Shown here: positions 9,769 through 53,886 of the stretch, piece by piece
How the letters are laid out: every line of letters begins with the position of its first letter
How positions within the stretch are numbered: the stretch's first letter is position 1
NCBI GenBank assembly: GCA_040902515.1
Contig: JBBDXB010000006.1
Coordinates: 404,763-468,762 of the forward strand
DNA from: Patescibacteria group bacterium
Lineage (GTDB): Bacteria > Patescibacteriota > SICC01
DNA: 64,000 bases
Direction of reading: 5' to 3'
Notes under the pieces: generated by a model
The model's input: only the letters and a program-made list of their open reading frames with translations
What the model was told of the DNA's origin: nothing
Databases searched by the model: none
Program-made: the position numbers and the translations under genes

Positions 9769-9769
9769 G

Positions 9770-22408: not shown

Positions 22409-22427
22409 GTTTGTGTGGTGGCCCGTG

Positions 22428-22501
22428 TCGGGGCGGCCGGATTCGAACCGGCGACCTCACGGCCCCCAGCCGTACGCGCTGCCAGGCTGCGCCACGCCCC
22501 G
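22428..22501 (-). tRNA. tRNA-Pro, anticodon GGG, 74 nt, CCA not encoded.
   Basis: Manual cloverleaf: acceptor CGGGGCG/CGCCCCG, D-arm GCGC-AGCCTGGCA-GCGC, anticodon arm TACGG-CTGGGGG-CCGTG, T-arm GCCGG-TTCGAAT-CCGGC, discriminator A. The track ORF 22262-23239 runs through it and is rejected in this region. Confidence 0.85.
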
Positions 22502-31827: not shown

Positions 31828-33594
31828 ATGCTGAACGATGCCGCCAACCCGGTCCGCTCGACCGCCACGAAGTTCCAGGAAGCCCTGGTCGAGCTTGAGC
31901 TGCTGACGCCCGAGCAGGCGAAGAACCTGCGCTTGCAGAGCATTAATTCCGGCACGCCGCTGGAACAGCTCGCCCGTGACATGGGGCTCGTCGACGACGA
32001 GAGCATCGCCCAAGCTCGAGGCAAGGTGCTCGGCCTGCCCTACGTGGACCTGCGCAACGAGAGCATCTCACGGGAGCTGCTCCAGACCGTTCCCCAGCAG
32101 GTCGCCAAGAACTACTCCTTGGTGGCGTTCGCCAAACGGGGAAGCCGGTACCAGATCGCGATGGCGGATCCCCGGAACGTCCAGGCGCTCGAGGCGCTGG
32201 AATTCGTCACCAAGCGCGAGAAACTGGCCGTCGACCTCCACATCGCCTCGCAGTCGAGCATCAAGCAGGCGGTCAGCCAGTACGGCTCGCTGTCCGGCGA
32301 AGTGAACGAAGTACTCAAGGAAGCGCCGCCCGACGAGATGGTGATCGAGGACGTGGACGAGGATCTCGGCTCCGCCAAGATGCTCGAGAAGGTCGTCTCC
32401 GACGCGCCGATCGCCAAAGCGATCGCGGCGATCCTCAAGTATGCCGTGAAGAAGAACGCCTCCGACATCCACGTCGAACCGACCGAGAAGGTAATCCAGG
32501 TGCGGTACCGGCTGGACGGCGTGCTCGAGAACACGCTGACCCTGCCGCGGAAGACGCTGTCCGCGCTGGTATCCCGGATCAAGATCCTCTCCAATCTGAA
32601 GATCGACGAAAGCCGGATCCCGCAGGACGGCCGCTTCAATTCCAAGCTCGAAGGGCGGGAGATCGACTTCCGTGTCTCCACGTTCCCGACCGTCCATGGC
32701 GAGAAGGTCGTGATGCGGCTCCTCGACAAGAGCCAGGGCCTGAAGACGCTCGAGGAAATCGGCGTCTCCGGCCGCGGCTTCGACAAGATGGTCGAAGGGC
32801 TCGAGAAGCCGTACGGCATGACCCTGGTGACCGGCCCGACCGGTTCCGGTAAGTCTACCACGCTGTATGCCTCGCTCGGCCGGCTGAATGACGTCGGCGT
32901 GAACATCGTCACGCTGGAAGATCCGGTGGAATACTCCATGGAAGGCATCAACCAGTCGCAGATCAACCCGCAGATCGGATACAGCTTCGCCTCCGGCCTC
33001 CGGAGCATCCTCCGTCAGGACCCGGACATCGTGATGGTCGGTGAGATCCGCGACCAGGAGACCGCCGACATGGCGGTGAACGCCGCGCTGACCGGCCACA
33101 TCGTGCTCTCCACGCTCCACACCAACGATGCCGCCGGCGCCCTGCCGCGCCTCGTGGACATGGGCGTGGAACCGTTCCTGATCGCCTCGTCCGTCAACAC
33201 GCTGGTCGCCCAACGACTGGTCCGGAAGATCTGCGATGCCTGCACCCAGGAAGTCACGCTCTCGGAGGTCGAGCGGAAGACGATCGAAGAGACCGTTGCC
33301 ACGATGCCGAAGGCGGTCCGCGATAAGCTGAAGCCGCTCAAGGAGCACCGGGTCCGAAGGGGCGCCGGCTGCGACAAGTGCGGCAAGAGCGGGTATCGCG
33401 GCCGGATCGGTATCTTCGAGGTGCTGCCGATGTCGGACGGTATCAAGGACCTGTTGCTGAAGAACGCCTCCGGCAGCGCGATCGCCAAGGAAGCGATCAC
33501 GGAAGGCATGGTCACCATGCAGATGGACGGCGTCCTGAAAGTGCTTGCCGGTATCACCACGCTTGAAGAAGTAATGCTGAGGACAAAGGAGTAA
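31828..33594 (+). CDS. pilB: Type IV pilus assembly ATPase PilB (GspE family).
   Basis: N-terminal GSPII_E_N-like domain. Walker A LVTGPTGSGKSTTLYA. Asp/His boxes and tetracysteine (CDAC...CDKCGKSGYRGR). Confidence 0.9.
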   Translation: MLNDAANPVRSTATKFQEALVELELLTPEQAKNLRLQSINSGTPLEQLARDMGLVDDESIAQARGKVLGLPYVDLRNESISRELLQTVPQQVAKNYSLVAFAKRGSRYQIAMADPRNVQALEALEFVTKREKLAVDLHIASQSSIKQAVSQYGSLSGEVNEVLKEAPPDEMVIEDVDEDLGSAKMLEKVVSDAPIAKAIAAILKYAVKKNASDIHVEPTEKVIQVRYRLDGVLENTLTLPRKTLSALVSRIKILSNLKIDESRIPQDGRFNSKLEGREIDFRVSTFPTVHGEKVVMRLLDKSQGLKTLEEIGVSGRGFDKMVEGLEKPYGMTLVTGPTGSGKSTTLYASLGRLNDVGVNIVTLEDPVEYSMEGINQSQINPQIGYSFASGLRSILRQDPDIVMVGEIRDQETADMAVNAALTGHIVLSTLHTNDAAGALPRLVDMGVEPFLIASSVNTLVAQRLVRKICDACTQEVTLSEVERKTIEETVATMPKAVRDKLKPLKEHRVRRGAGCDKCGKSGYRGRIGIFEVLPMSDGIKDLLLKNASGSAIAKEAITEGMVTMQMDGVLKVLAGITTLEEVMLRTKE

Positions 33595-33596
33595 CC

Positions 33597-34736
33597 ATGC
33601 CAGCCAATCCCAACCAGTCCGCGTCGGAAAAAGCCCCTACCGTGAGCGTCGGTGCGGCGGTTCCGCCTGATCCCGAGCAGCAGATGGGACAACTGTTGGA
33701 GCTGGTAGTGTCGCATGACGCCTCCGACCTCCATCTCACCGTCGGCATGCGCCCGGTCCTCCGGATCGACGGCCAGCTGCATCAGGTCGGTGATCATGAC
33801 GTCCTGACGCCGGAGCGGATCGAAGGCCTGCTCAGCACGGTCATGAATACCGAGCAGAAGAAGCGCCTCAAGGAGGACAAGGAACTCGATTACTCGCTTC
33901 CCTACGAGGACAAGGCCCGGTTCCGGGTGAACGTCTTCACCCAGCGGGGCTATCTGGCCGGAGCGTTCCGGCTGATTCCGATGACGCTCAAGAGCTACAA
34001 GGACCTGCAGCTACCCGGCGAGATCGGCGGCTTCGCCAAGCTGAAACAGGGACTGGTACTGTTCGCCGGCCCGACCGGTCACGGTAAATCGACGACCCAG
34101 GCCGCGATCATCGACGACATCAACTCGAACCGGGCGGAACATATCCTGACCATCGAGGACCCCGTGGAGTACACGCACGTCCACAAGAAGTCGATCGTAG
34201 ACCAGCGCGAGGTCGGACAGGACACCAAGAGCTTCGCCAAGGCGCTGCGCTCCGCGCTCCGCGAGGATCCGGACGTCGTGCTGATCGGTGAGATGCGCGA
34301 CCCCGAGACAATGGCGGCCGCCATGACTATCGCGGAGACCGGACACCTGGTGTTCGCGACGGTGCACACCAACGACGCGCCGCAGACCATCGACCGGATC
34401 GTCGACAGTTTCCCCAGCTACCAGCAGGGGCAGATCCGTTCGCAGCTGGCACAGGTGCTCTCGGGCGTGGTCAGCCAACGGTTGCTTCCGGCGATCGGCG
34501 GCGGCCGGGTGCCGGCGGTCGAGATCATGATCGCCACGCCGGCGATCCGCAACCTGATCCGCGAGGAGAAGTCGCACCAGATCCCGAGCGCGATCCAGAC
34601 CAGTTCGGAGCAGGGCATGGTCTCGATGGAGAAGGCGTTGGCGGAACGGGTCCAACGCGGCCTGGTTAAGTACGACGACGCGATTCTGTATGCTAACGAC
34701 AAGCGGACACTCGGCAAACTGGTAAAGGGATACTAA
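33597..34736 (+). CDS. pilT: Twitching-motility retraction ATPase PilT.
   Basis: LFAGPTGHGKSTTQAAIID and AIRNLIREEKSHQI are present. N-terminal ~30-aa extension. Confidence 0.9.
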   Translation: MPANPNQSASEKAPTVSVGAAVPPDPEQQMGQLLELVVSHDASDLHLTVGMRPVLRIDGQLHQVGDHDVLTPERIEGLLSTVMNTEQKKRLKEDKELDYSLPYEDKARFRVNVFTQRGYLAGAFRLIPMTLKSYKDLQLPGEIGGFAKLKQGLVLFAGPTGHGKSTTQAAIIDDINSNRAEHILTIEDPVEYTHVHKKSIVDQREVGQDTKSFAKALRSALREDPDVVLIGEMRDPETMAAAMTIAETGHLVFATVHTNDAPQTIDRIVDSFPSYQQGQIRSQLAQVLSGVVSQRLLPAIGGGRVPAVEIMIATPAIRNLIREEKSHQIPSAIQTSSEQGMVSMEKALAERVQRGLVKYDDAILYANDKRTLGKLVKGY

Positions 34737-34746
34737 GACACACACC

Positions 34747-35961
34747 ATGGCTGATTACGTATACAAAGCACGCAACGCCGCCGGACAGATCAAGACCGGT
34801 GAGATCTCGGCCGCCACGGAGCAGGCCGCGGCCGAGCTATTGTCAGAACACCAGCTGATTCTGACCAAGCTGCAGGAGAAGAAAGAGCGGAGCTTCGACG
34901 TCTCGAAGCTCGTGGCCGCCCTCAACCGCATCGGCATGAAGGACAAGGTCATCTTCACCCGCCAGCTCGGGACGATGATCAAGTCCGGGCTTCCGATCGT
35001 GCAGGCGCTCAGCATCCTGTCCGAGCAGACGCAGAACCAGAAGTTCAAGGGCGTCATCGAGGACATCGCTTCGGGCATCGAGGGCGGCGGCAGCTTCTCC
35101 TCGATGCTTGCCAAGTACCCGAAAGTCTTCGACCGGGTCTACGTCAACATGGTCAGGGCCGGCGAGGCCTCCGGCCAGCTCGATGAGACCCTGAACCGCC
35201 TGGCGACGCAGCAGGAAAAGGCGTACGGCATCGTCAAGAAGGTCCGGGGTGCCATGCTCTACCCGGCGTTCGTGGTACTGGCCCTGATCGGCGCGACGAT
35301 CCTCATGTTGATCGTGGTGATCCCGCCGCTGAAGAACATCTTTGAAGGCGCGGGGGCGGAACTGCCGTTCATCACCCAGATGCTGATCACGATGTCCGAC
35401 GCCTTGCGCGGATTCTGGTATCTCTTCCTGATCGGCGCGGTCGCGCTGGTAGCGGGAGGACGGCAGCTGCTGAAGAGCGAGGGCGGCAAGAGCGCCTTCG
35501 ACCGGCTCAAGCTGAAGCTCCCGATCTTCGGCGGCCTCTTCCAGAAGATCTACGTCGCGCGGTTCACCCGCACGCTGGCCTCGCTGATCGGCGGCGGCGT
35601 GCCGATTATCCAGGCGCTTGAGATTACGGCCGATTCCATCGGCAACGGCGTCTACCAGAAGGGGCTGCTCAAGGCCGCCAAGCAGATCGAAGGCGGCGCC
35701 CAGCTCTCGCAACCGATCCGCGCGAACCCGAACTTCCCCCCGCTCGTGCCGCAGATGATCTCCGTCGGTGAGCAGACCGGAAAGATGGACGAGGTCCTGA
35801 ACAAGCTGTCCGACTTCTACGAAGAGGAGGTCGACAACCTGGTCAAGAACCTTTCCACTCTGATGGAACCGATCCTGATGGTGATCATGGGTATCGCCGT
35901 CGGTGGATTGCTGATCGCGATCCTGCTCCCGATCTACAACCTCGGCAACGTGATCCAGTAG
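34747..35961 (+). CDS. pilC: Type IV pilus platform protein PilC (GspF family).
   Basis: Two GspF repeats (ERSFDVSKLVAALNRIGMKDKVIFTRQLGTMIKSGLPIVQAL...). 3+3 TM. Confidence 0.9.
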   Translation: MADYVYKARNAAGQIKTGEISAATEQAAAELLSEHQLILTKLQEKKERSFDVSKLVAALNRIGMKDKVIFTRQLGTMIKSGLPIVQALSILSEQTQNQKFKGVIEDIASGIEGGGSFSSMLAKYPKVFDRVYVNMVRAGEASGQLDETLNRLATQQEKAYGIVKKVRGAMLYPAFVVLALIGATILMLIVVIPPLKNIFEGAGAELPFITQMLITMSDALRGFWYLFLIGAVALVAGGRQLLKSEGGKSAFDRLKLKLPIFGGLFQKIYVARFTRTLASLIGGGVPIIQALEITADSIGNGVYQKGLLKAAKQIEGGAQLSQPIRANPNFPPLVPQMISVGEQTGKMDEVLNKLSDFYEEEVDNLVKNLSTLMEPILMVIMGIAVGGLLIAILLPIYNLGNVIQ

Positions 35962-35967: not shown

Positions 35968-36408
<441 letters not shown>

Positions 36409-36613: not shown

Positions 36614-37075
36614 ATGACACACGCCATCAAATCCATGACGACGCGCGGCCAGCGGGGCTTTACCCTGATCGAGCTGCTCGTGGTCATCGCCATCATCGGT
36701 ATCCTGGCGGCGCTGATCCTGGCGGCGCTCAACAGCGCCCAGAAGGGTGCCCGCGACTCCGAGCGGAAGAGCGACCTCAACCAGTACAAGACGGCGCTCG
36801 CGCAGTACAAGGCGGACAACGCGACCTACCCGGTGCAAGCCGCGGCGACGGCAATGACCAACGCCAACGCACCGTACAGTTCGCTGAACCCGAACTACAT
36901 TTCTGCGTTCCTGGACGATCCGACGAACGGTGCCAGCTATTACTACATAGGCTCGGCCACGCAGTTCGGCGTTTGCGCCAACCTTGAGCGTAAGTCCGGA
37001 TCGCGCTTTGAAGTCGGCCCGACGATCAGTCAGGAGACTTCCGGTGCAGCCAGTAGCTGTGCGCTGCTTAACTGA
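36614..37075 (+). CDS. Type IV pilin (second tandem paralog).
   Basis: MTHAIKSMTTRGQRGFTLIELLVVIAIIGILAALILAAL. GGGGGTG RBS. Confidence 0.85.
   Translation: MTHAIKSMTTRGQRGFTLIELLVVIAIIGILAALILAALNSAQKGARDSERKSDLNQYKTALAQYKADNATYPVQAAATAMTNANAPYSSLNPNYISAFLDDPTNGASYYYIGSATQFGVCANLERKSGSRFEVGPTISQETSGAASSCALLN
36663..36726 (+). repeat. 64-nt exact direct repeat, copy 2.
   Basis: Identical to 35999-36062. Confidence 0.9.
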
Positions 37076-37159: not shown

Positions 37160-38011
37160 ATGTACACGATTCTCGTCTTCATCCTGGGCCTGATTTTCGG
37201 CAGCTTCCTGTCGACGGTGTTCCACCGTCTCGAAATCGAAACCGAGACGGATTCCGCACGGAGAGGAAAATCCCGTCGTCGAAAGAAAGCTGCGGAAGGG
37301 CTCGCCTCGGGCCGGTCCCGCTGCGACCATTGCAAGCGGCAGATCCCCTGGCATGACAACATTCCGCTGGCTTCGTTCCTGCTGCTGCGCGGGAAATGCC
37401 GCCACTGTGGCAAGCAGATCAGCGAGTACCATCCGGTGCTCGAGCTGACGTCCGGCCTGGCGCTGGTCGCCGCGTTCCTCGCATACGGGTTCTCCTGGCA
37501 GTTCTTAGTGGCCGGCTTCTTCGGACTGGTGATGGTCTTCCTCTTCGCCTACGACCTCCGGCACCAGATCATCCCGAATGTCGTCGTGATTCCGGCGATC
37601 GCCGTGGCCCTGGTCGTGATCCTCTTCCAGTACGTGCTGTTCCAGCAGGGCGTTCCGATTCCGCTCGGGCTCTGGTCCGCCGATCCCGACACATACCTGC
37701 TCGGGGGCGGCGTGGCCGGCCTGTTCTTCCTCGGGCTCTCCGCGGCGTCGGGGGGCCGCTGGATCGGCGGGGGTGATGTGAAGCTCGCGGCGCTGATCGG
37801 ACTGGTGCTCGGCTGGCCGGCGGTCGTGGTCGCGATCTTCATCGCTTATCTGATCGGCCTGCTTTACGCGCTGATCCTGCTCGCCACCCGCCATGCCACG
37901 CTCAAAAGCTACGTCCCCTTCGGGCCGATGCTGGTCGCCGGGTACTTCATCGCGGCATTCTACGCCGACTATTTCCTGAATTGGTACGAGGGGCTGGTGC
38001 TGCTGCAATGA
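37160..38011 (+). CDS. pilD: Prepilin peptidase PilD (A24 family) with a Lys/Arg-rich insertion in the zinc-binding N-terminal region.
   Basis: CDHCKRQIPWHDNIPLASFLLLRGKCRHCGKQIS tetracysteine. Multi-TM. Insert: DSARRGKSRRRKKAAEGLASGRS. Confidence 0.85.
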   Translation: MYTILVFILGLIFGSFLSTVFHRLEIETETDSARRGKSRRRKKAAEGLASGRSRCDHCKRQIPWHDNIPLASFLLLRGKCRHCGKQISEYHPVLELTSGLALVAAFLAYGFSWQFLVAGFFGLVMVFLFAYDLRHQIIPNVVVIPAIAVALVVILFQYVLFQQGVPIPLGLWSADPDTYLLGGGVAGLFFLGLSAASGGRWIGGGDVKLAALIGLVLGWPAVVVAIFIAYLIGLLYALILLATRHATLKSYVPFGPMLVAGYFIAAFYADYFLNWYEGLVLLQ

Positions 38012-38619
38012 AGCGGCTCGGCGCCAAGCTTGCCTTCCTGTTCCGCGACCAGCGCGGCTTCACCATGCTCGAGATGGTGACCGTGCTGGCGATCGTCGGC
38101 GTGCTGTCGGCGCTGGTCATCGTGAACACCGCGGTCGGTGACCGACGGCAGGAACTCCGCGATGCTGCGTCCCAGTTCATCACCCACGTACGGAACGTCG
38201 AGGCGCGGGCGGCCGCTTCGGAAGCCATACCCGACGAGGAGGGCAATCCCGTCTCCCGCAAGGCATACGGAATCTGCGCTTCCTCGACGGTCTCGGACGA
38301 GCCGTGTGCCCTGCCTCCGTCCGGCACCCGGGCCGATGAGTACGAGCTGTATGCCCGCCAGACGGACGACACGGACTACGCTAGCCGGCCGACGAATCCG
38401 GACATCCTGCAGACGGTGATGCTCCCGGAAGACGTGGCGTTCAGCGTGTCCGGCGGCCATCTCGACTTCCTGCCGCCGCAACCGTCGATGCTGGTGGTCG
38501 GCTCGAGTGCGGACCGTGCGATCGGGTTTCAGTACCAGGACGTCAGTAACTGCGGCGGCAGCCCGGATTGCGTGACGATCAGGTTCCGGCCGCGGGCGGG
38601 GGTAGTCTATGTTGAATAA
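38008..38619 (+). CDS. Minor pilin / pseudopilin (prepilin-type N-terminus).
   Basis: ATGA overlap with pilD. RGFTMLEMVTVLAIVGVLSALVIV. Confidence 0.7.
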   Translation: MKRLGAKLAFLFRDQRGFTMLEMVTVLAIVGVLSALVIVNTAVGDRRQELRDAASQFITHVRNVEARAAASEAIPDEEGNPVSRKAYGICASSTVSDEPCALPPSGTRADEYELYARQTDDTDYASRPTNPDILQTVMLPEDVAFSVSGGHLDFLPPQPSMLVVGSSADRAIGFQYQDVSNCGGSPDCVTIRFRPRAGVVYVE

Positions 38620-39259
38620 GCGCCGCAATCAGCGAGGATTCACGCTGGTCGAGGTCATCGTGATGATGTCCATCGTCGTGATCGGCGTCCTGGCGACGCT
38701 CTCGGTAGCCAACCTCGCGGTGCGGGCCAGCGATGCCAACGAACAGCGGGTGGCCGCCGTGAACCTGTCCCGGGAGGGCGTGGAGCTGGTACGGGCGATC
38801 CGGGACTCGAACTGGGCCGCCGCGTCGGAAGGATCCGGCGCCTCCTGCTGGAACCACTATGCCCAGTCCCCGGAACAGGCCCGGGCCGTACCGTACACCA
38901 ACAGCTGCACCGACGCGATCGGTTCGCCGGGTAGTACCTGGCACTTCGTGGTGTATCCCAACACCGGCAACGGCATGCCGTACATGCAACGGGTACCATC
39001 CGCGAATACCACGGATCCTGCGTATCGCCTGTGCCGGGTGGGTACGCCGGCGCTCTACCGTCCCTACGCAAGCGCCTGTCCCTCGGGGCAGACGTTCTTC
39101 CGGCGGGTCTCGATCAGCGTAGGCAAGGACCTGGGAACCGACGCGGATGACGGTCGGCGCAAGTACAGTTACCGGATCCGGTCATACGTGACCTGGCCCG
39201 ACAATGACCGTCCCGAGGTGTTGGTCGAGGAATACATCACCGACTGGAGGAAGCCATGA
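38609..39259 (+). CDS. Minor pilin (PilW/FimT-like).
   Basis: NQRGFTLVEVIVMMSIVVIGVLATLSVANLAV. 11-nt overlap with the upstream gene. Confidence 0.7.
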   Translation: MLNKRRNQRGFTLVEVIVMMSIVVIGVLATLSVANLAVRASDANEQRVAAVNLSREGVELVRAIRDSNWAAASEGSGASCWNHYAQSPEQARAVPYTNSCTDAIGSPGSTWHFVVYPNTGNGMPYMQRVPSANTTDPAYRLCRVGTPALYRPYASACPSGQTFFRRVSISVGKDLGTDADDGRRKYSYRIRSYVTWPDNDRPEVLVEEYITDWRKP

Positions 39260-40509
39260 TCGGGCGGCGGATCCGCGGTGTGCTCCGCGACCAGCGGGGA
39301 TACACCCTGATCGAGCTGGTCGTCTCCTCGACCATCTTCATCCTGCTGGCGGTCGTAGTGGTCGGCGTGTTGGTCAGCGTTACCCAGACTTCCAGCAAGA
39401 CCGCCGCCCAGCGCAAGGTTCAACAGGATGCCCGGGTGAACATCGAGGAGGTCGCCCGTGCGGTCCGGACGTCGAGAATCGACTACTCGTTCTATCGTGA
39501 GAATGCCGGCGACGCCCGTTGCCGGTTGCCTGGCGACGCGACCGGCAGCCGGGCCTTGCCGTTGCTGCAGACCGTGGCGGGGCCGGCCAATGCGCCGGAC
39601 GACAGCACGCGCGTGGTCTTCTTCTACGACCCGGGAACGGCTGCGGATGGTAGCGAGGGGGCTCTGTATCGCTATGAGAACAGTGCGGATGCGGCGGCAC
39701 CGACCTGCAATGAGCTGTTCGCGGCCGCGGACAACGTCCGGTTGACCGCGGACAACGTCGCGGTCACGGCGACCCGCTTCTTCGTCAGCCCGCTGACCGA
39801 TCCCGACGGAGCGGACTGTCCCGGGGCCGTCCCGAACGCCTCCTGCCAGCTCCCGAAGAATACCCATCCCCGCGTGACCATCAGCGCGACCGTGCGCACG
39901 AAGCAAGTGGTCGCCCTGACTCCGAACGAACAGGCGGAGACCAGCGAGACGGTCCTCCAGACGACCGTCGGCAGCCGGTCGTATCCGATCGACAACCTGT
40001 CGGGGCAATCGGAAGGATCCGCTCCCGGACCCGCGCCGGTAATCCTGATCAAGGATGGAAACGACTACGCGCTCTGCCAGGATTCCAGCCGTTCCGATTA
40101 CTGCCAGAGCGACCCCGCCAAACCTACCGCGGTCTACTCGCTCAGCGGCGGCACGGGAGGGAACCCGGTGTTCCGCACGGCGTACATCTTCTCGGTGCCA
40201 TCCGCCGGCACGTACGACCTGAAGCTTTCCTATTACAACTTTTCGCTCGGGGGATTGAATCCTCCCTCCGGGTACAGCTACGAGGTCACGGCATGGGTAC
40301 TCCTGCCGAGCGGCTGGAGACAGGAGGTCGTCAATCTGCCGATCGAGGCCGCGCCCACCAGCTCCAACCCGCGTGGCGGAACCCTGATCACCGGCCTGAG
40401 CCTTCCCGAGGATGACGCCGTCGTCGTGATCGACTGGGCGAACGACTCCTACCAGGCCGGCGTGTATGACGCGAACTTCGGCATCGTTAACGTTTCCCTG
40501 GAGCAATGA
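39256..40509 (+). CDS. Large minor pilin (417 aa).
   Basis: RGYTLIELVVSSTIFILLAVVVVGVLVSV. ATGA overlap. Confidence 0.65.
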   Translation: MIGRRIRGVLRDQRGYTLIELVVSSTIFILLAVVVVGVLVSVTQTSSKTAAQRKVQQDARVNIEEVARAVRTSRIDYSFYRENAGDARCRLPGDATGSRALPLLQTVAGPANAPDDSTRVVFFYDPGTAADGSEGALYRYENSADAAAPTCNELFAAADNVRLTADNVAVTATRFFVSPLTDPDGADCPGAVPNASCQLPKNTHPRVTISATVRTKQVVALTPNEQAETSETVLQTTVGSRSYPIDNLSGQSEGSAPGPAPVILIKDGNDYALCQDSSRSDYCQSDPAKPTAVYSLSGGTGGNPVFRTAYIFSVPSAGTYDLKLSYYNFSLGGLNPPSGYSYEVTAWVLLPSGWRQEVVNLPIEAAPTSSNPRGGTLITGLSLPEDDAVVVIDWANDSYQAGVYDANFGIVNVSLEQ

Positions 40510-42197
40510 TGAAGCGCTTCCTGCGAGACCGTGTCGGCAACCGGGGCAACGCCGTCCTGTTCTCCCTGGTAATCATGGGTTCGGCGTTGACGGCCAGTCT
40601 CGGCATGACCGCCCTGGTCGCGAGCGAGATCCGGAACGTGGCACTGATTCCGCCATCGGAACGGGCGTACTACAAGGCGGAGAGCTATATCGAGCAGGGG
40701 CTTTGGGAGAAGAAGCAGGATCCGAACTTCCAGCACCCCCCCGCGGATGACCCGGACGCCGCGCTGCCGACCGACTTCCTGTGTCCCGGGGGCGATTGCT
40801 TCGAGAGCGATCCCGGCGACCAGGCCGGCCTGCTGACCGAATTCGTGGCCACTACTTCTCCGGTCGAAGAAGAGGTGCCGCTCAAGCAGGACGTGCCTCA
40901 GCAATTGGACATCGCCACCACTGCGACCACCCCCGATAGCGGTTGCCTGGACCTTGGAACCGTCTCCGGCGAGAGCGGCTTCAATGGCGTGGAGGTCTCG
41001 ATCATCGCGTTCCCAGACAGCGATGCCACCGACCGGTTCCCGACCGACAACCCCTCGACCCCGGTGTTCGTCGAGAAGAAGGTGATTCCGGCGGGCGACA
41101 GTCCGGACATCCTGCTCGGTGCGGGAACCACGAACGCGCTCGGCGAGCAGTCGCCGCCGCTCAAGGATTCCACGTTCCGCCTGCGGCTCAAGGCGCTTGG
41201 CGCCGACGCGAGCATCGAACCGCGGGTCAGCACGGGCGGCTGCGGGAGCGGGAACCTGCTGGCACTCCGCAGCCCCGACTTCACGGTCCGGGCGGTAGCC
41301 AAGGATGCCTCCGCGCAACGCGGGATCCAGGTGCTGACGCCGGCGGCCGAGGAAATCGTGAATGTCTTCGATCACGTCCTGTTCTCCGACCTCGACTTGT
41401 CCAAACTCGATGCCAAGGTACCGGAGGAGGCCACCAGCCAGTCGGTCGTGGTGCCGGTACGGATGGTCAGCAACTGCAGCTCGGGCAGCGAGCGGCCGAT
41501 TCCCGCGATCGACCACGGGTCGTCGATCCTGAACGTGACGATTACCGGCGGCCAGAGCGCGCCGGTAGGCTCCGGCAGTCAGGTGATCTTCACCAACCTG
41601 GAGCCAGGACTGGAGTACCAGGTCAATACCACTTCCGCAGGAAACTGGTATATGAGCTGCGGTGCCCGTTCGGTGGTTACCCAAGCGAACCAGCAGGTGA
41701 CTGCACCGACCCTCCGCGTGGTACCGCGGTCTCGGATACCGCTGTACCGGTTGTGGAGCCTTTCGCACTTCGCCGACCACTTCTATACCATCAACGTCAA
41801 TGAGTACAACCAGCGGCGGGACCTTATCTCGGGAGCGGCACCGTATAATTCGCCGGAAGGAATTACCGGCTACGTCTACCAGACCCAGAAACCGGGGACC
41901 GGCCCGTTTTACCGACTGTGGAAACCGGGCGTGGCGGACCACTTCTATACGATGAGTACGGCGGAGCGTAATAGTGCGGTAGCCGTCCATGGGTACGTCT
42001 ACCAGAACATTTCCGGGTATATGTGGCCATACAACGGCACGTGTCCCGAAGGCACTACCCAGCTCTACCGCAGCAACCGGGGTGATGACCACCTGTACAC
42101 CACCAGTATTAGTGAGTGGAATTCCGCCGCCGCCGCGAGCCCGCCCTGGGTGAAAGAGGGCATCGCCGGCTGCATCTGGACCACACCGCAACTATGA
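40506..42197 (+). CDS. PilX-N-terminal-like pilus protein with three C-terminal DUF5648-type ~40-aa repeats. Candidate tip adhesin.
   Basis: N-terminus NRGNAVLFSLVIMGSALTASLGMTALVASEI (PilX_N-like). Repeats: PLYRLWSLSHFADHFYTINVNEY...EGITGYVY, PFYRLWKPGVADHFYTMSTAERN...HGYVY and QLYRSNRGDDHLYTTSISEWN...EGIAGCIW. Family names recalled from memory. Confidence 0.65.
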   Translation: MMKRFLRDRVGNRGNAVLFSLVIMGSALTASLGMTALVASEIRNVALIPPSERAYYKAESYIEQGLWEKKQDPNFQHPPADDPDAALPTDFLCPGGDCFESDPGDQAGLLTEFVATTSPVEEEVPLKQDVPQQLDIATTATTPDSGCLDLGTVSGESGFNGVEVSIIAFPDSDATDRFPTDNPSTPVFVEKKVIPAGDSPDILLGAGTTNALGEQSPPLKDSTFRLRLKALGADASIEPRVSTGGCGSGNLLALRSPDFTVRAVAKDASAQRGIQVLTPAAEEIVNVFDHVLFSDLDLSKLDAKVPEEATSQSVVVPVRMVSNCSSGSERPIPAIDHGSSILNVTITGGQSAPVGSGSQVIFTNLEPGLEYQVNTTSAGNWYMSCGARSVVTQANQQVTAPTLRVVPRSRIPLYRLWSLSHFADHFYTINVNEYNQRRDLISGAAPYNSPEGITGYVYQTQKPGTGPFYRLWKPGVADHFYTMSTAERNSAVAVHGYVYQNISGYMWPYNGTCPEGTTQLYRSNRGDDHLYTTSISEWNSAAAASPPWVKEGIAGCIWTTPQL

Positions 42198-42595
42198 TCA
42201 CGATCCATACCGACGGCGGAGCCCGCGGCAACCCCGGTCCGGCGGCGATCGGCGGCGTGATCGCCCGCGACGGTGAAGTGCTTGAGGAATTCTCGGCGTA
42301 CATCGGTCGTGCGACCAACAACCAGGCGGAGTATCAGGCGCTGCTGGCCGGCCTCGACCGGGCGCGTAAACACACAGACGAGGACGTCCGGTGTACGCTC
42401 GATTCCGAGCTGCTCGTGAAACAGCTCAACGGTGAGTACAAGATCAAAAGCCCGGAACTGAAGAAGCTCGCGCACCAGGTGCGGGGACTCGAAGAACATT
42501 TCCGGAGCGTGCGGTACGAGCACACGTATCGCGAGGGCAACAAGCGGGCCGACGCGCTCGTGAACCGGGCGCTTGACCGCGAGCTGGCCGGTTGA
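42194..42595 (+). CDS. rnhA: Ribonuclease HI.
   Basis: MITIHTDGGARGNPGPAAIGGVI...NNQAEYQALLAGL...TLDSELLVKQLNGEYK...YEHTYREGNKRADALVN. ATGA overlap with the upstream pilus gene. Confidence 0.85.
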   Translation: MITIHTDGGARGNPGPAAIGGVIARDGEVLEEFSAYIGRATNNQAEYQALLAGLDRARKHTDEDVRCTLDSELLVKQLNGEYKIKSPELKKLAHQVRGLEEHFRSVRYEHTYREGNKRADALVNRALDRELAG

Positions 42596-42624
42596 TTTCG
42601 ACGCGGGAACCGGCTATGCTACGC

Positions 42625-43014
42625 GTCCGGTCGGCAGACTACGCAGCCGCCGGGCACCTTATCAGTGCCGGGAGGAAAGTCCGAGCACCATCGGGCGGCG
42701 CGGTCGGTAACCCCGACCCGGAGCAATCCGAGGGATAGTGCCACAGAGACCATACCGCCGATGGCCCGTCTCGCGACGGGCACAGGCAAGGGTGAAAAGC
42801 GTGCGGTAAGAGCGCACGGTCGCCGCCGGTGACGGCGGCGGGAGGTAAACCCCGCGCGGTGCAAGGTAAACAGGACCAGGGCGGCCCGTCCGTTACGGTC
42901 CGGGTTACCGCTCGATCCCGCGGGCAATCGCGGGGCTAGATGGATGGCTGCGCTGCTTCGCACCGCGAGGCGCGGAGCACGACAGAACTCGGCTTACCGG
43001 TCCGCCGGCCGTGG
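42625..43014 (+). ncRNA. rnpB: RNase P RNA (bacterial type A).
   Basis: Conserved blocks GGGAGGAAAGTCCGAGCACC, AGGGTGAAAAGCGTGCGGTAAGAGCGCACG and ACAGAACTCGGCTTACCGGTC. P1 pairing CGGTCGGC(42628)/GCCGGCCG(43011). A hairpin plus T-run at 43026-43059 would terminate it. Overlapping minus-strand ORFs are rejected. Confidence 0.8.
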
Positions 43015-43116
43015 ACACATCGTGAGACGCTCCCTGACGGGGGCGTTTTGCGTTTCCCGGACGGATCCGGCCGCGTGAGGACAGGTCGCCCTTGGTCGCG
43101 GTAAGCTGGGAGGGAA

Positions 43117-44514
43117 ATGAAACGTTCGGAACTGGCCATCTCCGCTCTGCTGGTGCCGCTTGACGCGCTCGCGGTCTTCGCCGCGTTCCTGATCTCCTAC
43201 TACGTCCGCGTGGAGTCGGGGGCGTTGCCGGTGGCCACGGTCCTGCCGCTTGAACGCTACTTGGTGATCGCGGCCGGCATCACCGCCGTCTGGCTGGTGA
43301 TCTTCGCGTTGTTGAAGATGTACCGGCAGCAGAGCACCCGCCGCGGCCTGAGCGAGTTCGCACGGATCCTGGCGGGCTCGACGATCGGCACGCTGGCGGT
43401 CGTGGCGCTGATCTTCTTCCTGCGGGTGGACTTCTTCTCGCGATTCGTGATCCTGTTCGGGTTCGTGGCGAGCATCCTGCTGGTCACGCTCGTCCGGGCC
43501 GCCGTCCGGCTGCTCCAGCAGTACCTCTTCCGGTACGGGATCGGTGTCCGCCGGGCCGTGGTCATCGGGACCGGCCCGACCGCCCGGACTCTCGCCCGCG
43601 AACTCGCGGCCGGCAGCCGCGGGTACCGGATCCTCGGTTTCGTCGCGACAGGCGGCCCGGCACGCGGCAAGGAGGTCCTGGGACGCCAGAAGGACCTGTC
43701 GAGGATCCTGAAGCGGTACCGTCCTGACGAGCTGATCGATGCCGATCCGGACCTGTCGGACGAACAGAAGCTCTCGCTGCTCCACGCCACCGAAGATGCC
43801 CATGTGGACTTCCGGTTCGTACCGAGCACGCCGGAACTGGCTACCGGTCGCGTCGGCGTGGCGGCGATCGGCGGGATCCCGGTGATGACGCTGCTCCGGA
43901 CGCCGCTCGAAGGCTGGGGCCGGATCGGCAAGCGGGTCCTCGACCTTGCCGGCAGCATCCTGGTGCTGCCGTTCTTCCTGGTGCTCCTGCCGTTCGTCGC
44001 CGTGGCGATCAAGCTCGACTCGCGCGGCCCGGTGATCTTCAAGCAAACGAGGGTCGGCCGGGCGGGGAAGCCCTTCACGTACTATAAATTCCGGGGCATG
44101 GTGAAGGACGCCGAGAAGCGGCTTCCCGGGCTCCGACGCTACAATGAGGCCAGCGGCCCCGTCTTCAAGATGAAGGATGATCCGCGGGTGACCCGGGTCG
44201 GCGGGTTCCTCCGGAAGACCAGTCTCGATGAGCTGCCGCAGGTCATCAACGTCCTGAAGGGCGACATGAGCCTGGTCGGACCACGCCCGCCGATTCCCTC
44301 GGAGGTGAGGCAATACACCCGCGAGCAGCGCCGCCGCCTGACGATCAAGCCGGGTATCACCGGACCGTGGCAGGTCTCGGGCCGGAGTGACGTCGGGTTC
44401 GACGAGTGGATCCGGCTCGACCTCTACTACATCCAGCACTGGTCGCTGCTGCTCGACCTGACGATCCTGCTCAAGACCGTGAAGGTCGTACTCGCGAGGA
44501 AGGGAGCGTACTAG
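43117..44514 (+). CDS. Polyprenyl-phosphate sugar-1-phosphate transferase (WbaP/CpsE-type bacterial sugar transferase).
   Basis: [57 protein letters not shown]...[20 protein letters not shown]. Confidence 0.85.
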
Positions 44515-44518
44515 CCGG

Positions 44519-45640
44519 ATGAGCCGGAAACTCCGGGTCGCGCTCGTGCACGACCATCTCGTGCAGGACGGCGGTGCCGAGCAGGTGCTCCGCGTCTTCA
44601 TGCGGATGTGGCCGGAGGCGCCGGTCTACACCGCGTTCTTCGACCCGGTCAGGATGGGCAAGGACTTCGCCAAGCAGGACATCCGTACCAGCTTCCTGGA
44701 CGACCTGCCGCTGGCGCGACGCTACTACAAATGGACGCTCCGCTGGTTGGACGGGGCGTTCCGGCGGTTCGATCTCTCGGACTACGACATCGTACTCTCT
44801 TCGGCGTCCGGCTGGGCCAAGTCGGTCCGGACCGGTCCCGGGACGCTCCACGTCTGCTACTGTCATACGCCGATTCGGTACATCTGGAGCGATGTCGACC
44901 GCTACATCACGGAAACCGGCTACCCGGCACCGCTCAAGGCGATGTTCCGGAGGATGCTCGCCGGGTTCCGTCGCCGCGACCTTCGGGCCGCCGCCGGCGT
45001 CGATGACTTAATCGCCAATTCGGAGTACGTCCGCCGGCGTATCCGCCGGTACTACGGCCGCCCGGCCGCGGTAATCCATCCGCCGGTGGACATCGCTAAG
45101 TTCAAGCCGTCGCGACGGCAGGGAGGATACTTCCTCGTTGCCGGGCGGCTCGAACCGTACAAGCGCAATGACATCGTGATCGAAGCGACGAACCGCTTGC
45201 AGGCCCCGCTCGTCGTGATGGGTGACGGCACCGACCGCCCCCGGCTGCAGCGGCTCGCCGGGAAGACCGTCCGGTTCACCGGGAGGGTCTCCGATGCCCG
45301 GCGCCGGACGGTCTTCTCCGAAGCGACGGCCCTGGTCAATCCGCAGGACGAGGACTTCGGGATTACCGCGGTGGAGGCGCTGGCTTCCGGCACCCCCGTG
45401 ATCGCATACCGGAAAGGCGGCGCGACGGAAATCCTCACGCCGCGGACCGGCCGGTTCTTCACCGCCCAAACGCCCGCCGCGGTCGCGGCGGCGATGCGGG
45501 CGTTCGATCGGGACGCCTTCTCCCGCCAGGACCTGGTTGCCCGCGCCCGCGAGTTCGCGGTGGCGCGGTTCGAGCGGCGGATCCGCAGCCATGTCGACGA
45601 AGCGTATGACCGGTTCACGCGCCATGCGGATCGCGGTTGA
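44519..45640 (+). CDS. Glycosyltransferase family 4.
   Basis: DEDFGITAVEALASGTPVIAYRKGGATEIL. Confidence 0.8.
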   Translation: MSRKLRVALVHDHLVQDGGAEQVLRVFMRMWPEAPVYTAFFDPVRMGKDFAKQDIRTSFLDDLPLARRYYKWTLRWLDGAFRRFDLSDYDIVLSSASGWAKSVRTGPGTLHVCYCHTPIRYIWSDVDRYITETGYPAPLKAMFRRMLAGFRRRDLRAAAGVDDLIANSEYVRRRIRRYYGRPAAVIHPPVDIAKFKPSRRQGGYFLVAGRLEPYKRNDIVIEATNRLQAPLVVMGDGTDRPRLQRLAGKTVRFTGRVSDARRRTVFSEATALVNPQDEDFGITAVEALASGTPVIAYRKGGATEILTPRTGRFFTAQTPAAVAAAMRAFDRDAFSRQDLVARAREFAVARFERRIRSHVDEAYDRFTRHADRG

Positions 45641-46739
45641 TGCGCGGAGCCTCGCCGCACCGACCGGGCGGGGGGTAAGCCACTATGCCGAATCCTTGCT
45701 CGGTGAGCTGGCCCGGCGGCACCCGGAGGACGAATGGGTGCTGCTCCAGATGGGACGCCGGGCCTGGCATCCCCCGCGTGTGCTCCGGCGCCGGAACGTC
45801 ACCGTCTGCCACCGGCGCCTCCCGAACAAATTCCTCAACGCGTCGCTCGCTGCCACCGGGATGCCGAGCCTGCGCTCGCTGGCCGGTGACGTGGACGCGT
45901 TCTTCATGCCGAACCTGGGGTTCCTGCCGCGCCTCGGCGGCGTGCCGCTGGTCCTGACCGTGCATGATCTCTCGTTCGAAACGTATCCGCGGTTCTACTC
46001 GCCGCGGGAGCGGCTCTGGCACGCGGCGGTCCGGCCCCGGCACCTGGTCGGGAAAGCGTCCCGTATCCTCGCCGTCTCGGGCCAGACCGAACGCGAGCTC
46101 ATGCGGACGTACGGCACGCGGCGGAACCGGATCACCGTCGTATCTCCCGGGGTGGATGCGGGATACCGACCGCCCTCCGCTCGGGAACGTGGCCGGATCC
46201 GGCGGAAATACCGGCTGCCCCGGTCCTATTTCCTGTACGTCGGCGCCTACGAGCCGCGCAAGAACCTGCCGCTCCTTTTGGACGGCTATGCTCGTGCCCG
46301 TGCCGCGGGGCTGACGGCCGAGCTGGTATTGGTCGGCCCGGGGACCGGCCGAGCCGCTGATCGGGCCCGTCGCGCCGACGCCACGGTACTTGGCTACGTC
46401 CCGGAACGGGACAAGGCCGGATTGTACGGCGGTGCGTTGGCGGTGACGCTGCTTTCCCGCCATGAGGGGTTCGGCCTGCCGCCGCTGGAGGCGCTGGCCT
46501 GCGGCACGCCCTCCCTGGTCAGTCCGCTTCGGATCTTCGACGAGACGGTCGGGCCGGCGGCGCTCCGGGCCGGTACCGTTCGGGACGTGGCGAGTGAGCT
46601 GGTACGCTTGGAACGTAGCCCGGGGCTGCGTTCGGGGCTGGTGCGCCGCGGCAAGGACCGGCTCTCGCAATTCCGCTGGCCGGAAACGGCGGAGAAAGCA
46701 TATGAAACGATCAGCAAGACCGTCCATGAGCATACGTGA
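45624..46739 (+). CDS. Glycosyltransferase family 4.
   Basis: HEGFGLPPLEALACGTPSLVSPLRIFDET. Start taken at ATG 45624 (MRIAVDARSL) with a 17-nt overlap, rather than the track start at 45537. Confidence 0.75.
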   Translation: MRIAVDARSLAAPTGRGVSHYAESLLGELARRHPEDEWVLLQMGRRAWHPPRVLRRRNVTVCHRRLPNKFLNASLAATGMPSLRSLAGDVDAFFMPNLGFLPRLGGVPLVLTVHDLSFETYPRFYSPRERLWHAAVRPRHLVGKASRILAVSGQTERELMRTYGTRRNRITVVSPGVDAGYRPPSARERGRIRRKYRLPRSYFLYVGAYEPRKNLPLLLDGYARARAAGLTAELVLVGPGTGRAADRARRADATVLGYVPERDKAGLYGGALAVTLLSRHEGFGLPPLEALACGTPSLVSPLRIFDETVGPAALRAGTVRDVASELVRLERSPGLRSGLVRRGKDRLSQFRWPETAEKAYETISKTVHEHT

Positions 46740-48813
46740 TGACATCAGGCCGCGGCGGCGGCCTGCCACGCAGTCAACTCCGGTTCGCCGGAGTGGGCCG
46801 GTTCCCGCTCCGCCCGCCCGCCCGCCCCACCGGCCGGTGCGGCATGTTCCTTCGCCGCACGTCCCGGCGCCTGAACTTCCGGTGCCGCCGCCCGATCCGG
46901 CCGCCGCTATCGTTGCCGGTCCGGTCACCGCGGACCGCTCGGCGGGACCCGCACCGTCCCGGCGCTTCGCTGCCGGATCGCTGCTCCGCACCGCTGTGGT
47001 CGTCCTGATGGTCTTCGGGCTGGCGGTCCAGGTTCGGGGGGAAGGAGCCTTCGTCCAGGAAGAGATCATGGACCAGGTCACCGTCGCCAAGGAGGCACTG
47101 GCCGCTTCCCGTAGCGCATTCGCCGCAGGGGACCTGATCGCCGCCGAGGACCAGCTCGGTATCGCGGAACATTCCCTGCATCAGGCCAACCGTTCCGTGG
47201 CCTCGCTTGGCCAGCAGGGAGGCATCTCGCTCGGGCCCGCCGCCGGCGACCGTGCGGTGGCGGCCGAACTTCTCGCGACGGGGGAGCGTTCCATCCGCAC
47301 TGTCCGCGCCTTGGTCAAGGACGTTCGTACCATTCCGGACCGCGCCGCGGAGGCGGAGGGCGGGTTCTACGCCACCGGCCAGGTGGTACTTGATGACGTG
47401 CCGGAAATCCGCGGGCACCTCGAGGCCTTGGACGGTGAACTCGGGCTGATCGCAGTGCTCGCCGAGCGTGCGAAAGGCAGCGACCGGGCGGAGCTTCGCG
47501 ATGCCGGCGAGCAGTTCGTGGCGATGGTCCCGGACGCCGACGCGTCCCTGGACCGGGCGCGGGACGTCGCCGCGGCTCTCCCGGACCTGCTCGGCGAGGA
47601 TGAGTTCCGCCGCTACCTGGTCTGGTTCCAGAATCCCGCCGAGATCCGTCCGACCGGCGGGTTCGTGGGGACGCTGGGGGTCCTGACGCTCGAGCGTGGT
47701 GCGGTGAAGGATCTTGCGGTGGATTCGATCTACGACATTGCCAATCAGGCCAACCGTTCGATCGAAGACGAACAGCCGGACCCGTTCCGCCGTTTCGCGC
47801 GTTCGGACGATCCGGCCTGGAGCCTCCAGAACGCGAACTGGTCGCCGGACTTCCCGAGCGCCGCCCGTCGTTTCCAGCGGTACTATGAGCGCGGCGGCGG
47901 CGCCACGACCGACGGCGTGGCCGCGATCACGATCACGCCGTTCGTCGAGCTGCTGGAGGTCCTCGGGCCGATCGAGATGCCGGAATACGGCTACACGTTC
48001 ACGGCGGAAAACTTCCAGACCACGATGCAGGATGACCAGCTCGAACGCTCGCAGGCCGGTGACCGCGACCCCAAGCGGATCCTCCGGGACTTCGTACCGA
48101 AGCTGCTGGCCAGCATCGGCGAGGCTGACGAAGCCACCCGCGCCAAGGCCGTGGCGATCCTGGCGGATGCCGCGCGCTCCGGCGACCTCCAGTTGTACTT
48201 TACGCGCGACCGCCACCAGGACCTGCTTGGTGAAGCGAAACTCGCCGGGCGGCTCGAGCCGGCGACCGGCCGGCTGGCGCTGGTTGATGCCAACATCGCC
48301 GGTTACAAGACCAGCCGTGACATAGCCACCGAACTAGAACGCGGCGTGACGATCGCGGAGGACGGCACGGTCTCGGAGACGCTGACTGTCATCCGCGAGC
48401 ACTCCGGCGAGTCCGACACTCGGGACAACTTGAACTACACGCGGCTCTTCCTGCCGCCGGGATCGCGGGTCACCGGCCACGACGGCTGGAACGCCGAGAC
48501 GTTGCAGGGTCAGGAACCGGTCACGTGGGAGCCGGTCGTGGGCGGCTGGACGGACGTGCCGGTCTTCGGGGAGCGCGAGTATTCGCTCAGGTATGACCGC
48601 GGCCAGCTGGCCGACCTCACCGCGGGCACGTTCTCGCTGAGCTACCGGGCCCAGCCTGGCACCGCGGTGAACGTCCGCACGGTCATCACGCTGCCCGAAG
48701 GATACGCCTGGAGCGGCCGGGAAGGGGCGACGGTCTCCGGCCGCCGCATCACCCTTACCGAGACAGCGGACACCGATCTCCTGTATGATTTGACGTTCAC
48801 CCGCACCGACTGA
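46702..48813 (+). CDS. DUF4012-family membrane protein with a Pro-rich N-terminal region.
   Basis: Pro-rich ~100 aa, then TM LLRTAVVVLMVFGLAVQV. WFQNPAEIRPTGGFVGTLGVLTL matches the DUF4012 core as remembered. Start ATG 46702 or 46726; the track start 46462 is in the upstream gene. Confidence 0.6.
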   Translation: MKRSARPSMSIRDDIRPRRRPATQSTPVRRSGPVPAPPARPPHRPVRHVPSPHVPAPELPVPPPDPAAAIVAGPVTADRSAGPAPSRRFAAGSLLRTAVVVLMVFGLAVQVRGEGAFVQEEIMDQVTVAKEALAASRSAFAAGDLIAAEDQLGIAEHSLHQANRSVASLGQQGGISLGPAAGDRAVAAELLATGERSIRTVRALVKDVRTIPDRAAEAEGGFYATGQVVLDDVPEIRGHLEALDGELGLIAVLAERAKGSDRAELRDAGEQFVAMVPDADASLDRARDVAAALPDLLGEDEFRRYLVWFQNPAEIRPTGGFVGTLGVLTLERGAVKDLAVDSIYDIANQANRSIEDEQPDPFRRFARSDDPAWSLQNANWSPDFPSAARRFQRYYERGGGATTDGVAAITITPFVELLEVLGPIEMPEYGYTFTAENFQTTMQDDQLERSQAGDRDPKRILRDFVPKLLASIGEADEATRAKAVAILADAARSGDLQLYFTRDRHQDLLGEAKLAGRLEPATGRLALVDANIAGYKTSRDIATELERGVTIAEDGTVSETLTVIREHSGESDTRDNLNYTRLFLPPGSRVTGHDGWNAETLQGQEPVTWEPVVGGWTDVPVFGEREYSLRYDRGQLADLTAGTFSLSYRAQPGTAVNVRTVITLPEGYAWSGREGATVSGRRITLTETADTDLLYDLTFTRTD

Positions 48814-53505: not shown

Positions 53506-53813
53506 ACACTTCCTCCTTGTGTCAAAGCACATCGGTTGATAGACATGACCGGTATCCGGTCTGGCACCACCATGGCAAAGCTGGTGAAGCCGGTTCCGGA
53601 TGCTGGCAGTCCGGTATCAAGGTGCAAGCTGCCGTACGCTGACGACAGGATGTATTTATAGCAGCACTAAGGTAATAAATCAATATTCCGCCGACCACGG
53701 TAGTTCGATTTCGGGTGCCTCAGGGCAGACGACAAGAACGGCTAAGGTGAGACATAAGAGGGGAATCCGTATTGCCACCAGGCACTCGCTCCTCTCTTTC
53801 ACCTTGTCTCGTG

Positions 53814-53886
53814 TGACCCCACGGGGAGTCGAACCCCGGTTTCCAGGATGAGAACCTGGTGTCCTAGGCCACTAGACGATGGGGCC
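53814..53886 (-). tRNA. tRNA-Glu, anticodon CTC, 73 nt, CCA not encoded.
   Basis: Manual cloverleaf: GGCCCCA-TC-GTC-TAGTGGCCTAG-GAC-A-CCAGG-TTCTCAT-CCTGG-AAAC-CGGGG-TTCGACT-CCCCG-TGGGGTC-A. The D-arm is typical of tRNA-Glu. Confidence 0.85.

Follow-up and report, generated by a model that had tools for sequence, protein, structure and literature searches.

Described Pilin-Type Adhesins and the Locus under Study

Patescibacteria (candidate phyla radiation, CPR) account for a large share of bacterial diversity; they are host-attached and mostly uncultured, and the way in which they recognise their hosts is mostly unknown. The closest counterparts described in this phylum of the protein discussed here are PilX1 and PilX2 of Nanosynbacter lyticus TM7x. 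Locus one of the TM7x type IV pili (T4P) includes PilM1N1O1, PilB1, PilT, PilC1, PilD and five pilins (PMC11623550). PilX1 is a lectin-like jelly-roll protein and PilX2 contains a propeller, and neither possesses a predicted PilD signal (PMC11623550, Grossman 2024). Deletion of pilX2 halves the binding of TM7x to its host, about as much as deletion of the major pilin does, while pili still form without PilX2; exogenous rhamnose and an altered cell-wall polysaccharide of the host also change the binding (PMC11623550). The present study deals with the gene located at positions 40506–42197 (+ strand) of a stretch of DNA of 64,000 nucleotides, referred to below as the window (contig JBBDXB010000006.1 of the assembly GCA_040902515.1, positions 404,763–468,762 of the forward strand), which belongs to a Patescibacteria group bacterium. 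Its product of 563 amino acids (aa), predicted to be a modular minor pilin of the PilX type lacking Glu5, is probably the cap pilin (GspK/PilX-type) of a Saccharibacterial type IVa pilus, which primes and caps the filament and carries at the tip a DUF5648 domain serving as a lectin for a glycan of the host surface, so that PilT retraction would join the two cells.

The locus is of the same type as locus one of TM7x. Like PilX1 and PilX2, the protein comes last among the minor pilins of its set and is the largest of them, begins with an N-terminal helix having no canonical PilD signal, combines a jelly-roll (as in PilX1) with lectin-like accessory domains and is likewise proposed to be a tip adhesin for host glycans. 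Unlike them, it possesses an additional Ig-like spacer and a three-bladed DUF5648 propeller, whereas PilX1 ends after the jelly-roll and PilX2 has a seven-bladed propeller of the RCC1 type; besides, it originates from a high-GC environmental lineage. The likeness to PilX1 is one of locus organisation and of the jelly-roll as described for that protein.

A second group of related proteins is formed by GspK, PilX, PilK and ComGG. Within the core set of minor (pseudo)pilins, it is the PilX homologues and GspK that have no Glu5 (PMC7541494). A Glu5-less subunit of this kind caps the minor-pilin tip complex, and modular pilins bear adhesive domains that have been grafted onto them (PMC10191384). 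As in this group, the protein from the window follows three minor pilins with Glu5, has Gly at position −1 and no Glu5, and shares homology with PilX_N proteins by a transitive route. It differs from them in having no direct PilX_N match, a jelly-roll head and an adhesin module of its own in place of a docked PilY1 or a secretion substrate.

Modular pilins are also known from Streptococcus sanguinis, where PilB bears a grafted adhesive module and PilC belongs, as a minor pilin, to a complex that binds glycans (PMC8179133, PMC9934059; review PMC10191384). The common feature is a pilin moiety with a grafted adhesive or lectin domain at the tip, a location that is presumed for the protein studied here; its pilin scaffold (residues 1–305) is followed by independent Ig-like and DUF5648 domains, which is what defines a modular pilin. 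Like S. sanguinis, the organism appears to have neither an outer membrane nor PilY1, the locus showing no gene for a secretin or for PilY1. The S. sanguinis proteins are unrelated in sequence and have canonical class III signals, whereas no such signal (N_methyl, IPR012902) was found in the protein from the window.

The DUF5648 domain has been described from several settings. In BSAP-2 and BSAP-3, Bacteroidales toxins that target O-antigen, it makes up the C-terminal domain, which binds the receptor; GH70 alpha-glucanotransferases possess it as an auxiliary domain, and an enterococcal GH25 endolysin has it appended as a candidate for cell-wall binding. In all of them, as in the present protein, the same Pfam domain with a (beta3-alpha)3 fold constitutes a C-terminal targeting module of an extracellular protein; here, the carrier is a predicted pilin and not a pore-forming toxin or an enzyme. 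In the literature found to mention DUF5648, there was no report of this domain on pilins or pili.

Gene Boundaries and Predicted Architecture of the PilX-Type Protein

The gene is joined to both of its neighbours by ATGA overlaps. Its ATG at 40506 overlaps the stop codon of the preceding gene, 39256–40509 (CAATGATG), and its TGA at 42195–42197 overlaps the ATG of an RNase H gene at 42194 (CTATGATC). The latter gene (42194–42595, + strand) encodes RNase HI (RVT_3, E 4.7e-23; RNase_H, E 6e-10), so the first-pass annotation, which had named rnhA as the next gene with an ATGA overlap, was right on this point; RNase HI is a neighbour kept in the four loci of close relatives (L001–L004) and lies outside the pilus system. 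The GC content of the window is 58–70%, and a spurious open reading frame (ORF) in high-GC DNA was considered and rejected, since the fold is confident, the synteny is conserved and 26 homologues match the protein over its full length. A genome representative from GTDB, 99% identical over the N-terminal domain, is an uncultured metagenome-assembled genome (MAG) of Candidatus Saccharibacteria, and the other relatives come from MAGs assigned to Saccharimonadia or named “Patescibacteria group”.

The full-length protein was modelled with AlphaFold2 (AF2) with a mean predicted local distance difference test score (pLDDT) of 75. The predicted architecture consists of the alpha1 helix, a jelly-roll head, an Ig-like spacer and a DUF5648 propeller. 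Three pairs of cysteines are conserved in the family, namely 93/98 (invariant), 324/385 (in at least 24 of the 26 members) and 513/556 (in most members bearing DUF5648), and such a set of pairs would fit an extracytoplasmic protein. Searches of the PDB by sequence, both with the full protein and with a profile of the N-terminal domain, gave matches at chance level only, and a Foldseek comparison of the whole five-part model with the PDB was uninformative, returning tandem-Ig sortase pilins and capsids with TM scores of about 0.1.

The globular head (residues 72–305; 40719–41420, + strand) is a jelly-roll-like beta-sandwich that contains the invariant Cys93-Cys98 pair and ends in a conserved FDxVLFSDLxLxK tail; in the AF2 model, the beta domain occupies residues 110–280. 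No similarity of the head to solved minor pilins or to GspK was found, and the classical pilin fold was not matched. The head is followed by a spacer (residues 312–407; 41439–41726, + strand), all-beta in the AF2 model and Ig-like (SdrD-B/CnaB/transthyretin-like), with the conserved pair Cys324-Cys385.

The N-Terminal Prepilin-Type Segment

The protein begins with a basic leader of 14 residues, MMKRFLRDRVGNRG (40506–40547, + strand), which ends in Gly14 and is followed by NAVLFSLVIMGSALTASLGMTALVAS, with the hydrophobic segment at residues 15–40. The boundary is a putative prepilin-peptidase site, G↓NAVLF (here and below, the arrow marks the position of the expected cleavage). The leader pattern Q-x-G↓NAVLFS recurs in the homologues. 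Of 24 full-length homologues extending over this part of the protein, 23 have Gly at −1 and all have N15 (+1), A16 (+2), L18 (+4) and S20 (+6), while position +5 is occupied by F or I and never by Glu. The long alpha1 helix (residues 15–71; 40548–40718, + strand) combines the hydrophobic stretch 15–40 with a conserved PilX_N-like motif, ERAYYKAESYIEQGLW, according to the AF2 model and the alignment. The modelled helix extends over residues 10–71, with block-mean pLDDT of about 95–97 at residues 21–70 and 78–90 at the helix ends.

Residues E52, A54, Y55, Y56, E59, S60 and E63 are invariant in the close family. Across 135 relatives, G14 is conserved in at least 90%, and the near-invariant positions are G14, A54, Y56, A58, E63, L66, D289 and K300, a set that takes in the glycine of the cleavage site and the AYYxAExxxE motif typical of PilX_N. 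As a separate observation, Glu41 (window positions 40626–40628), at the end of the hydrophobic segment of alpha1 and 27 residues past the putative cleavage site, is E in 24 of 26 members and D in the other 2.

A hydrophobic N-terminus of the pilin or PilX_N type had been proposed in the first-pass annotation. The hydrophobic segment, the Gly at −1 and the homology to PilX_N-bearing proteins agree with this proposal, but the Pfam scan suggested for it did not bear it out directly, since at E values up to 10 neither PilX_N nor N_methyl gave a match in the protein or in the 25 homologues close to it. The absence of an N_methyl match is expected because the protein is a presumed cap subunit lacking Glu5. 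As a direct PilX_N match is missing in all 26 close homologues, the link was made through distant relatives. A profile of residues 1–305 built from 20 family members was compared with 1.84 billion representative proteins, and 828 relatives were found at E ≤ 1e-3, including 104 at E ≤ 1e-10. Most of these are proteins of 250–330 aa that match both ends of the profile and represent the bare scaffold. The Pfam PilX_N model matches 42 of 100 sampled relatives of the 250–330 aa type (best E 3.3e-9, consensus AYYAAESGxE) and 9 of 30 longer ones. In an hhalign comparison, the close family, with the sequence from the window removed, aligned with the distant relatives with a probability of 99.95% (E 1e-38, 263 columns). 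Membership in the PilX_N superfamily is established in this way by transitive homology and not by the Pfam model. This homology through intermediates, along with the cleavage-site glycine and the AYYxAExxxE motif, places the N-terminus, as far as sequence comparison goes, among prepilin-type segments of the GspK/PilX class without Glu5.

The DUF5648 Domain

The C-terminal domain (residues 411–558; 41736–42179, + strand) was scanned for PF18885, a check set beforehand, and matched the profile strongly over residues 412–556 (150.6 bits, E 3.9e-44, profile positions 1–132 of 134; the gathering cut-off is 25 bits). This match establishes its membership in DUF5648 at the level of profile comparison. 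The domain consists of three beta-beta-alpha-beta blades and includes the pair Cys513-Cys556. The three DUF5648-type repeats reported previously for this protein are real, but together they constitute a single DUF5648 domain and not three. The first extends over residues 411–465 (LYRLWSLSHFADHFYT...EGITGYVY), the second over residues 466–517 (FYRLWKPGVADHFYT...QNISGYMW) and the third over residues 518–563 (LYRSNRGDDHLYT...EGIAGCIW), and they share the pattern (L/F)YR…DH(F/L)YT…E.N…G(Y/C).(Y/W). Two details of the earlier description need correction: the repeats are 46–55 aa long and not about 40 aa, and the spacing in the supposedly fixed LYR-x7-DH element is 8, 7 and 5 residues. No further occurrence of the motif D[HN]xY[TS] was seen in any of the six reading frames of the window.

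Structure prediction of the repeat module, also suggested earlier, yielded the three beta-beta-alpha-beta units, with pLDDT of about 90 over most of the domain. In the AF2 model, blade 1 is composed of strands at residues 411–418, 424–428 and 449–458 and a helix at 431–439; blade 2 has strands at 466–473, 478–482 and 498–507 and a helix at 485–495; blade 3 has strands at 517–525, 528–532 and 549–558 and a helix at 535–542. The threefold strand-strand-helix-strand order is that of the published (beta3-alpha)3 three-bladed propeller of the GH70 and BSAP domains.

Exchange of C-Terminal Modules

In most relatives, the scaffold corresponding to residues 1–305 stands alone; in the close family, the Ig-like spacer comes after it, and the C-terminal module next to the spacer varies. 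DUF5648 was detected with Pfam in 16 of the 26 close family members. In one member (P0022), it is replaced by PA14, and in five (P0017, P0020, P0021, P0025 and P0026), an unnamed beta-sandwich ending in …W(N/A)ND…DANF… is present. The member P0003 (937 aa; positions 8001–10814 of locus L004) has DUF5648-type repeats in a surface loop of the head and several C-terminal copies, and lacks the Ig-like spacer. Distant long relatives bear CBM6, CBM96, GLUG or BNR/sortilin-type propeller domains, or DUF5648. The variety of modules attached to the N-terminal domain (PA14, beta-sandwich, CBM6, CBM96, beta-propeller) suggests that the module sets the binding specificity.

One of these modules, the unnamed beta-sandwich, is also found on the neighbouring gene. 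The third minor pilin, encoded immediately upstream, ends in a module (…VVIDWANDSYQAGVYDANFGIVNVSLEQ, residues ~265–417, belonging to no Pfam family) that is 39% identical to the module of P0025 over 105 aa (E 2e-14) and also matches that of P0017 (E 6e-7). Since this beta-sandwich module is shared by the third minor pilin and by orthologues of the PilX-type protein, the comparison indicates that modules have moved between orthologues as well as between the third and the fourth minor pilins.

Pilus Operon and Gene Order

A complete type IVa pilus operon, located on the + strand, comprises pilMNO, pilBTC, two genes of the major-pilin type, pilD and three minor pilins and ends with the PilX-type gene. 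Comparative genomics of the minor-pilin block, another check proposed earlier, showed that the order of PilD, three minor pilins and the PilX-type gene is kept in the loci of close relatives L001–L004, and the same order, with bare relatives of 290–308 aa, is found in other Patescibacteria (L015, L017 and L018). L015 is a short contig without pilD, where three small pilin-type genes still precede the relative of the PilX-type gene. In all, nine related loci were counted as retaining the gene order. Judged from this order, the gene is the fourth minor pilin and occupies the slot of PilX/GspK. The first-pass annotation had assigned it to the position of the PilY1/PilC tip adhesins; this assignment is replaced by the PilX slot, and there is no PilY1-like gene or domain in the locus, nor did Pfam give a match to the PilY1/Neisseria_PilC propeller in the protein or its 25 homologues. 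With no PilY1-like gene present, the adhesin module would be fused to the cap pilin and not encoded separately.

PilM (28953–30038), PilN (30056–30769), PilO (30769–31440), PilB (31828–33594), PilT (33597–34736) and PilC (34747–35961) were all identified with Pfam. The two major-pilin-type genes encode proteins of 146 and 153 aa (35968–36408 and 36614–37075; N_methyl, E 5e-11 and 5e-10; T2SSG), both with the site G↓FTLIE. These tandem genes lie between pilC and pilD, and related loci have one or two of them. The prepilin peptidase PilD (37160–38011; A24_N_bact, E 1.3e-25; Peptidase_A24, E 8.4e-15) is followed by the first minor pilin, which is GspH-like and has the site G↓FTMLE (37981–38619; N_methyl, E 8.3e-7; GspH, E 4.8e-10, below the cut-off). 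For this gene, the ATG at 38008, overlapping the pilD stop codon, is a more likely start than the TTG at 37981. The second minor pilin (38609–39259, 216 aa) is PilV/GspI-like with G↓FTLVE (N_methyl, E 9.7e-7; TIGR02523 PilV, E 6e-10, below the cut-off). The third (39256–40509, 417 aa) has G↓YTLIE, an N_methyl match (E 2.6e-5), weak GspJ/ComGE-like matches and the C-terminal beta-sandwich module mentioned above. All these genes are on the + strand. The second and third minor pilins vary in size between the genomes of L001–L004 (236–418 aa).

In L017 and L018, a shorter block, comprising a pilin, PilD, three minor pilins and the PilX-like gene, stands apart from pilBTC, with YfhO and glycosyltransferases of the PMT/TMEM260 type ahead of it and a DNA ligase behind it. 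Directly upstream of pilM in the window, an ORF of 1267 aa (25090–28893, + strand) would encode a non-repetitive protein with an N-terminal hydrophobic segment and no Pfam match at E ≤ 1e-3, possibly a large protein of the cell surface that goes with the pilus genes. Downstream, the region 42194–49523 is conserved together with the pilus operon in L001–L003 and contains RNase HI, a sugar transferase, GT4 glycosyltransferases, a DUF4012 protein and YidC. In the window, this cluster includes the initiating sugar transferase (Bac_transf, 43117–44514), the GT4 genes, the DUF4012 protein (46462–48813) and YidC (48813–49523). In L004, the shared downstream order ends after RNase HI and a fragment of CoA_binding_3. 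The window also contains the genes of tRNA-Pro(GGG) (22427–22501, − strand) and tRNA-Glu(CTC) (53813–53886, − strand), which have no relation to the finding.

Proposed Function and Alternatives

The action of the protein as a tip-located cap pilin can be pictured as follows. It would enter the membrane through its N-terminal hydrophobic helix and would probably be cleaved by PilD after Gly14. Together with the three upstream minor pilins possessing Glu5, it would form a priming complex on the PilC/PilB platform, in which only the top position would be open to it because Glu5, the partner of the N-terminus of the subunit above, is missing; in this position, it would cap the filament. From the cap position, the jelly-roll head, the Ig-like spacer and the DUF5648 propeller would project from the pilus tip, where DUF5648 may act as a lectin on a surface glycan of the host bacterium, and PilT-driven retraction would pull the epibiont onto its host. 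A candidate pilus tip adhesin was also what the first-pass annotation had seen in this gene; that suggestion gains support here and withstood both of the refuting conditions set for it, given the DUF5648 score of the repeats and the prepilin-type N-terminus, and we infer the adhesin function from the architecture, the DUF5648 literature and the precedent of TM7x PilX1/PilX2.

Several points weigh against this interpretation. In TM7x, the locus-one pilus has been linked to twitching motility and essentiality, and host binding was shown for PilX2 of the other pilus (PMC11623550). A profile search of a set of 5.8 billion proteins (135 sequences) retrieved only proteins of environmental Patescibacteria, with neither TM7x PilX1 nor any named protein among them. 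A search of NCBIfam with the protein returned nothing, and Pfam PilX_N and N_methyl gave no match in the close family. PilD substrates do not usually have Asn at +1 and Phe at +5, and the cleavage is putative. The published case for glycan binding by DUF5648 rests on structural prediction and genetic inference, and the organism is represented by an uncultured MAG.

It could be, alternatively, that the protein is a surface lectin kept in the cytoplasmic membrane by an uncleaved signal anchor, merely co-transcribed with the pilus genes and acting as a short-range adhesin or as a tie between the machinery and the wall. A surface lectin of this kind would accord with the lack of a direct Pfam match to PilX_N or N_methyl, with a head fold that is not pilin-like and with the proposed role of DUF5648 as a cell-wall-binding domain in the endolysin, and the TM7x data, namely that pili still form without PilX2 and that the PilX proteins have no predicted PilD signal, point the same way. 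It is nevertheless unlikely, since a plain signal anchor would not need the near-invariant Gly at −1 and the N-A-x-L-x-S pattern that persist across more than 100 relatives. The homology to PilX_N proteins speaks for a pilin too, as does the fixed fourth place after three Glu5 minor pilins, which mirrors GspHIJK and FimU-PilVWX with their Glu5-less last member.

Less probable still is that the protein is a tip subunit whose DUF5648 domain binds the envelope polysaccharide of its own cell, or an abiotic or eukaryotic substrate, in attachment, twitching or auto-aggregation, or that the domain is a structural docking site. The conserved downstream cluster with the initiating sugar transferase, GT4 glycosyltransferases and DUF4012 is relevant here, so that a self-made glycan would be available, and the association of the TM7x locus-one pilus with twitching, and not with demonstrated host binding, agrees with such a role. 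The DUF5648 domains of BSAP-2 and BSAP-3, however, target the O-antigen of a foreign cell, the rapid swapping of modules fits variable external targets better than a conserved self glycan, and the binding of TM7x depends on glycans of the host cell wall. Finally, a PilY1/PilC-type non-pilin adhesin, secreted through Sec and docked on the minor-pilin complex, is what a large modular lectin-like protein at the end of a minor-pilin block could bring to mind, but the analogy was rejected as highly improbable, given no match to the PilY1/Neisseria_PilC propeller, an N-terminus that is a long helix of the PilX_N type and not a type I signal peptide, and three other minor pilins ahead of the gene, so that the fourth minor-pilin slot, that of PilX, is filled.

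Implications for Host Recognition in Patescibacteria

The idea of lectin-tipped pili in Saccharibacteria has already been published, and the additions made here are the architecture with DUF5648 and an Ig-like domain, the finding that the bare scaffold is widely distributed and the exchange of modules. Studies of TM7x have drawn attention to PilX minor pilins of lectin-like character and to glycans of the host cell wall, and the present locus carries this picture to an environmental lineage. The cap pilin would be a scaffold, made up of the helix and the jelly-roll, that is found across Patescibacteria and onto which differing modules of glycan-binding type have been grafted; one type of module sits on the third minor pilin in some cases and on the fourth in others. 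No new principle is involved; the protein is a concrete and testable candidate for a determinant of host specificity, and it suggests a biological role for DUF5648.

A broader view can be offered tentatively, by analogy with the receptor-binding proteins of phages. It is possible, if rather doubtful, that the C-terminal modules borne by the cap pilin and by its neighbour, the third minor pilin, are swappable host-recognition cassettes in environmental Saccharibacteria. DUF5648, PA14, CBM-like and propeller modules would then be traded among orthologues and between adjacent minor pilins, and would set the cell-wall glycan recognised and, with it, the host. If this were true, the sequence of one locus could allow the host range of uncultured Patescibacteria to be predicted.

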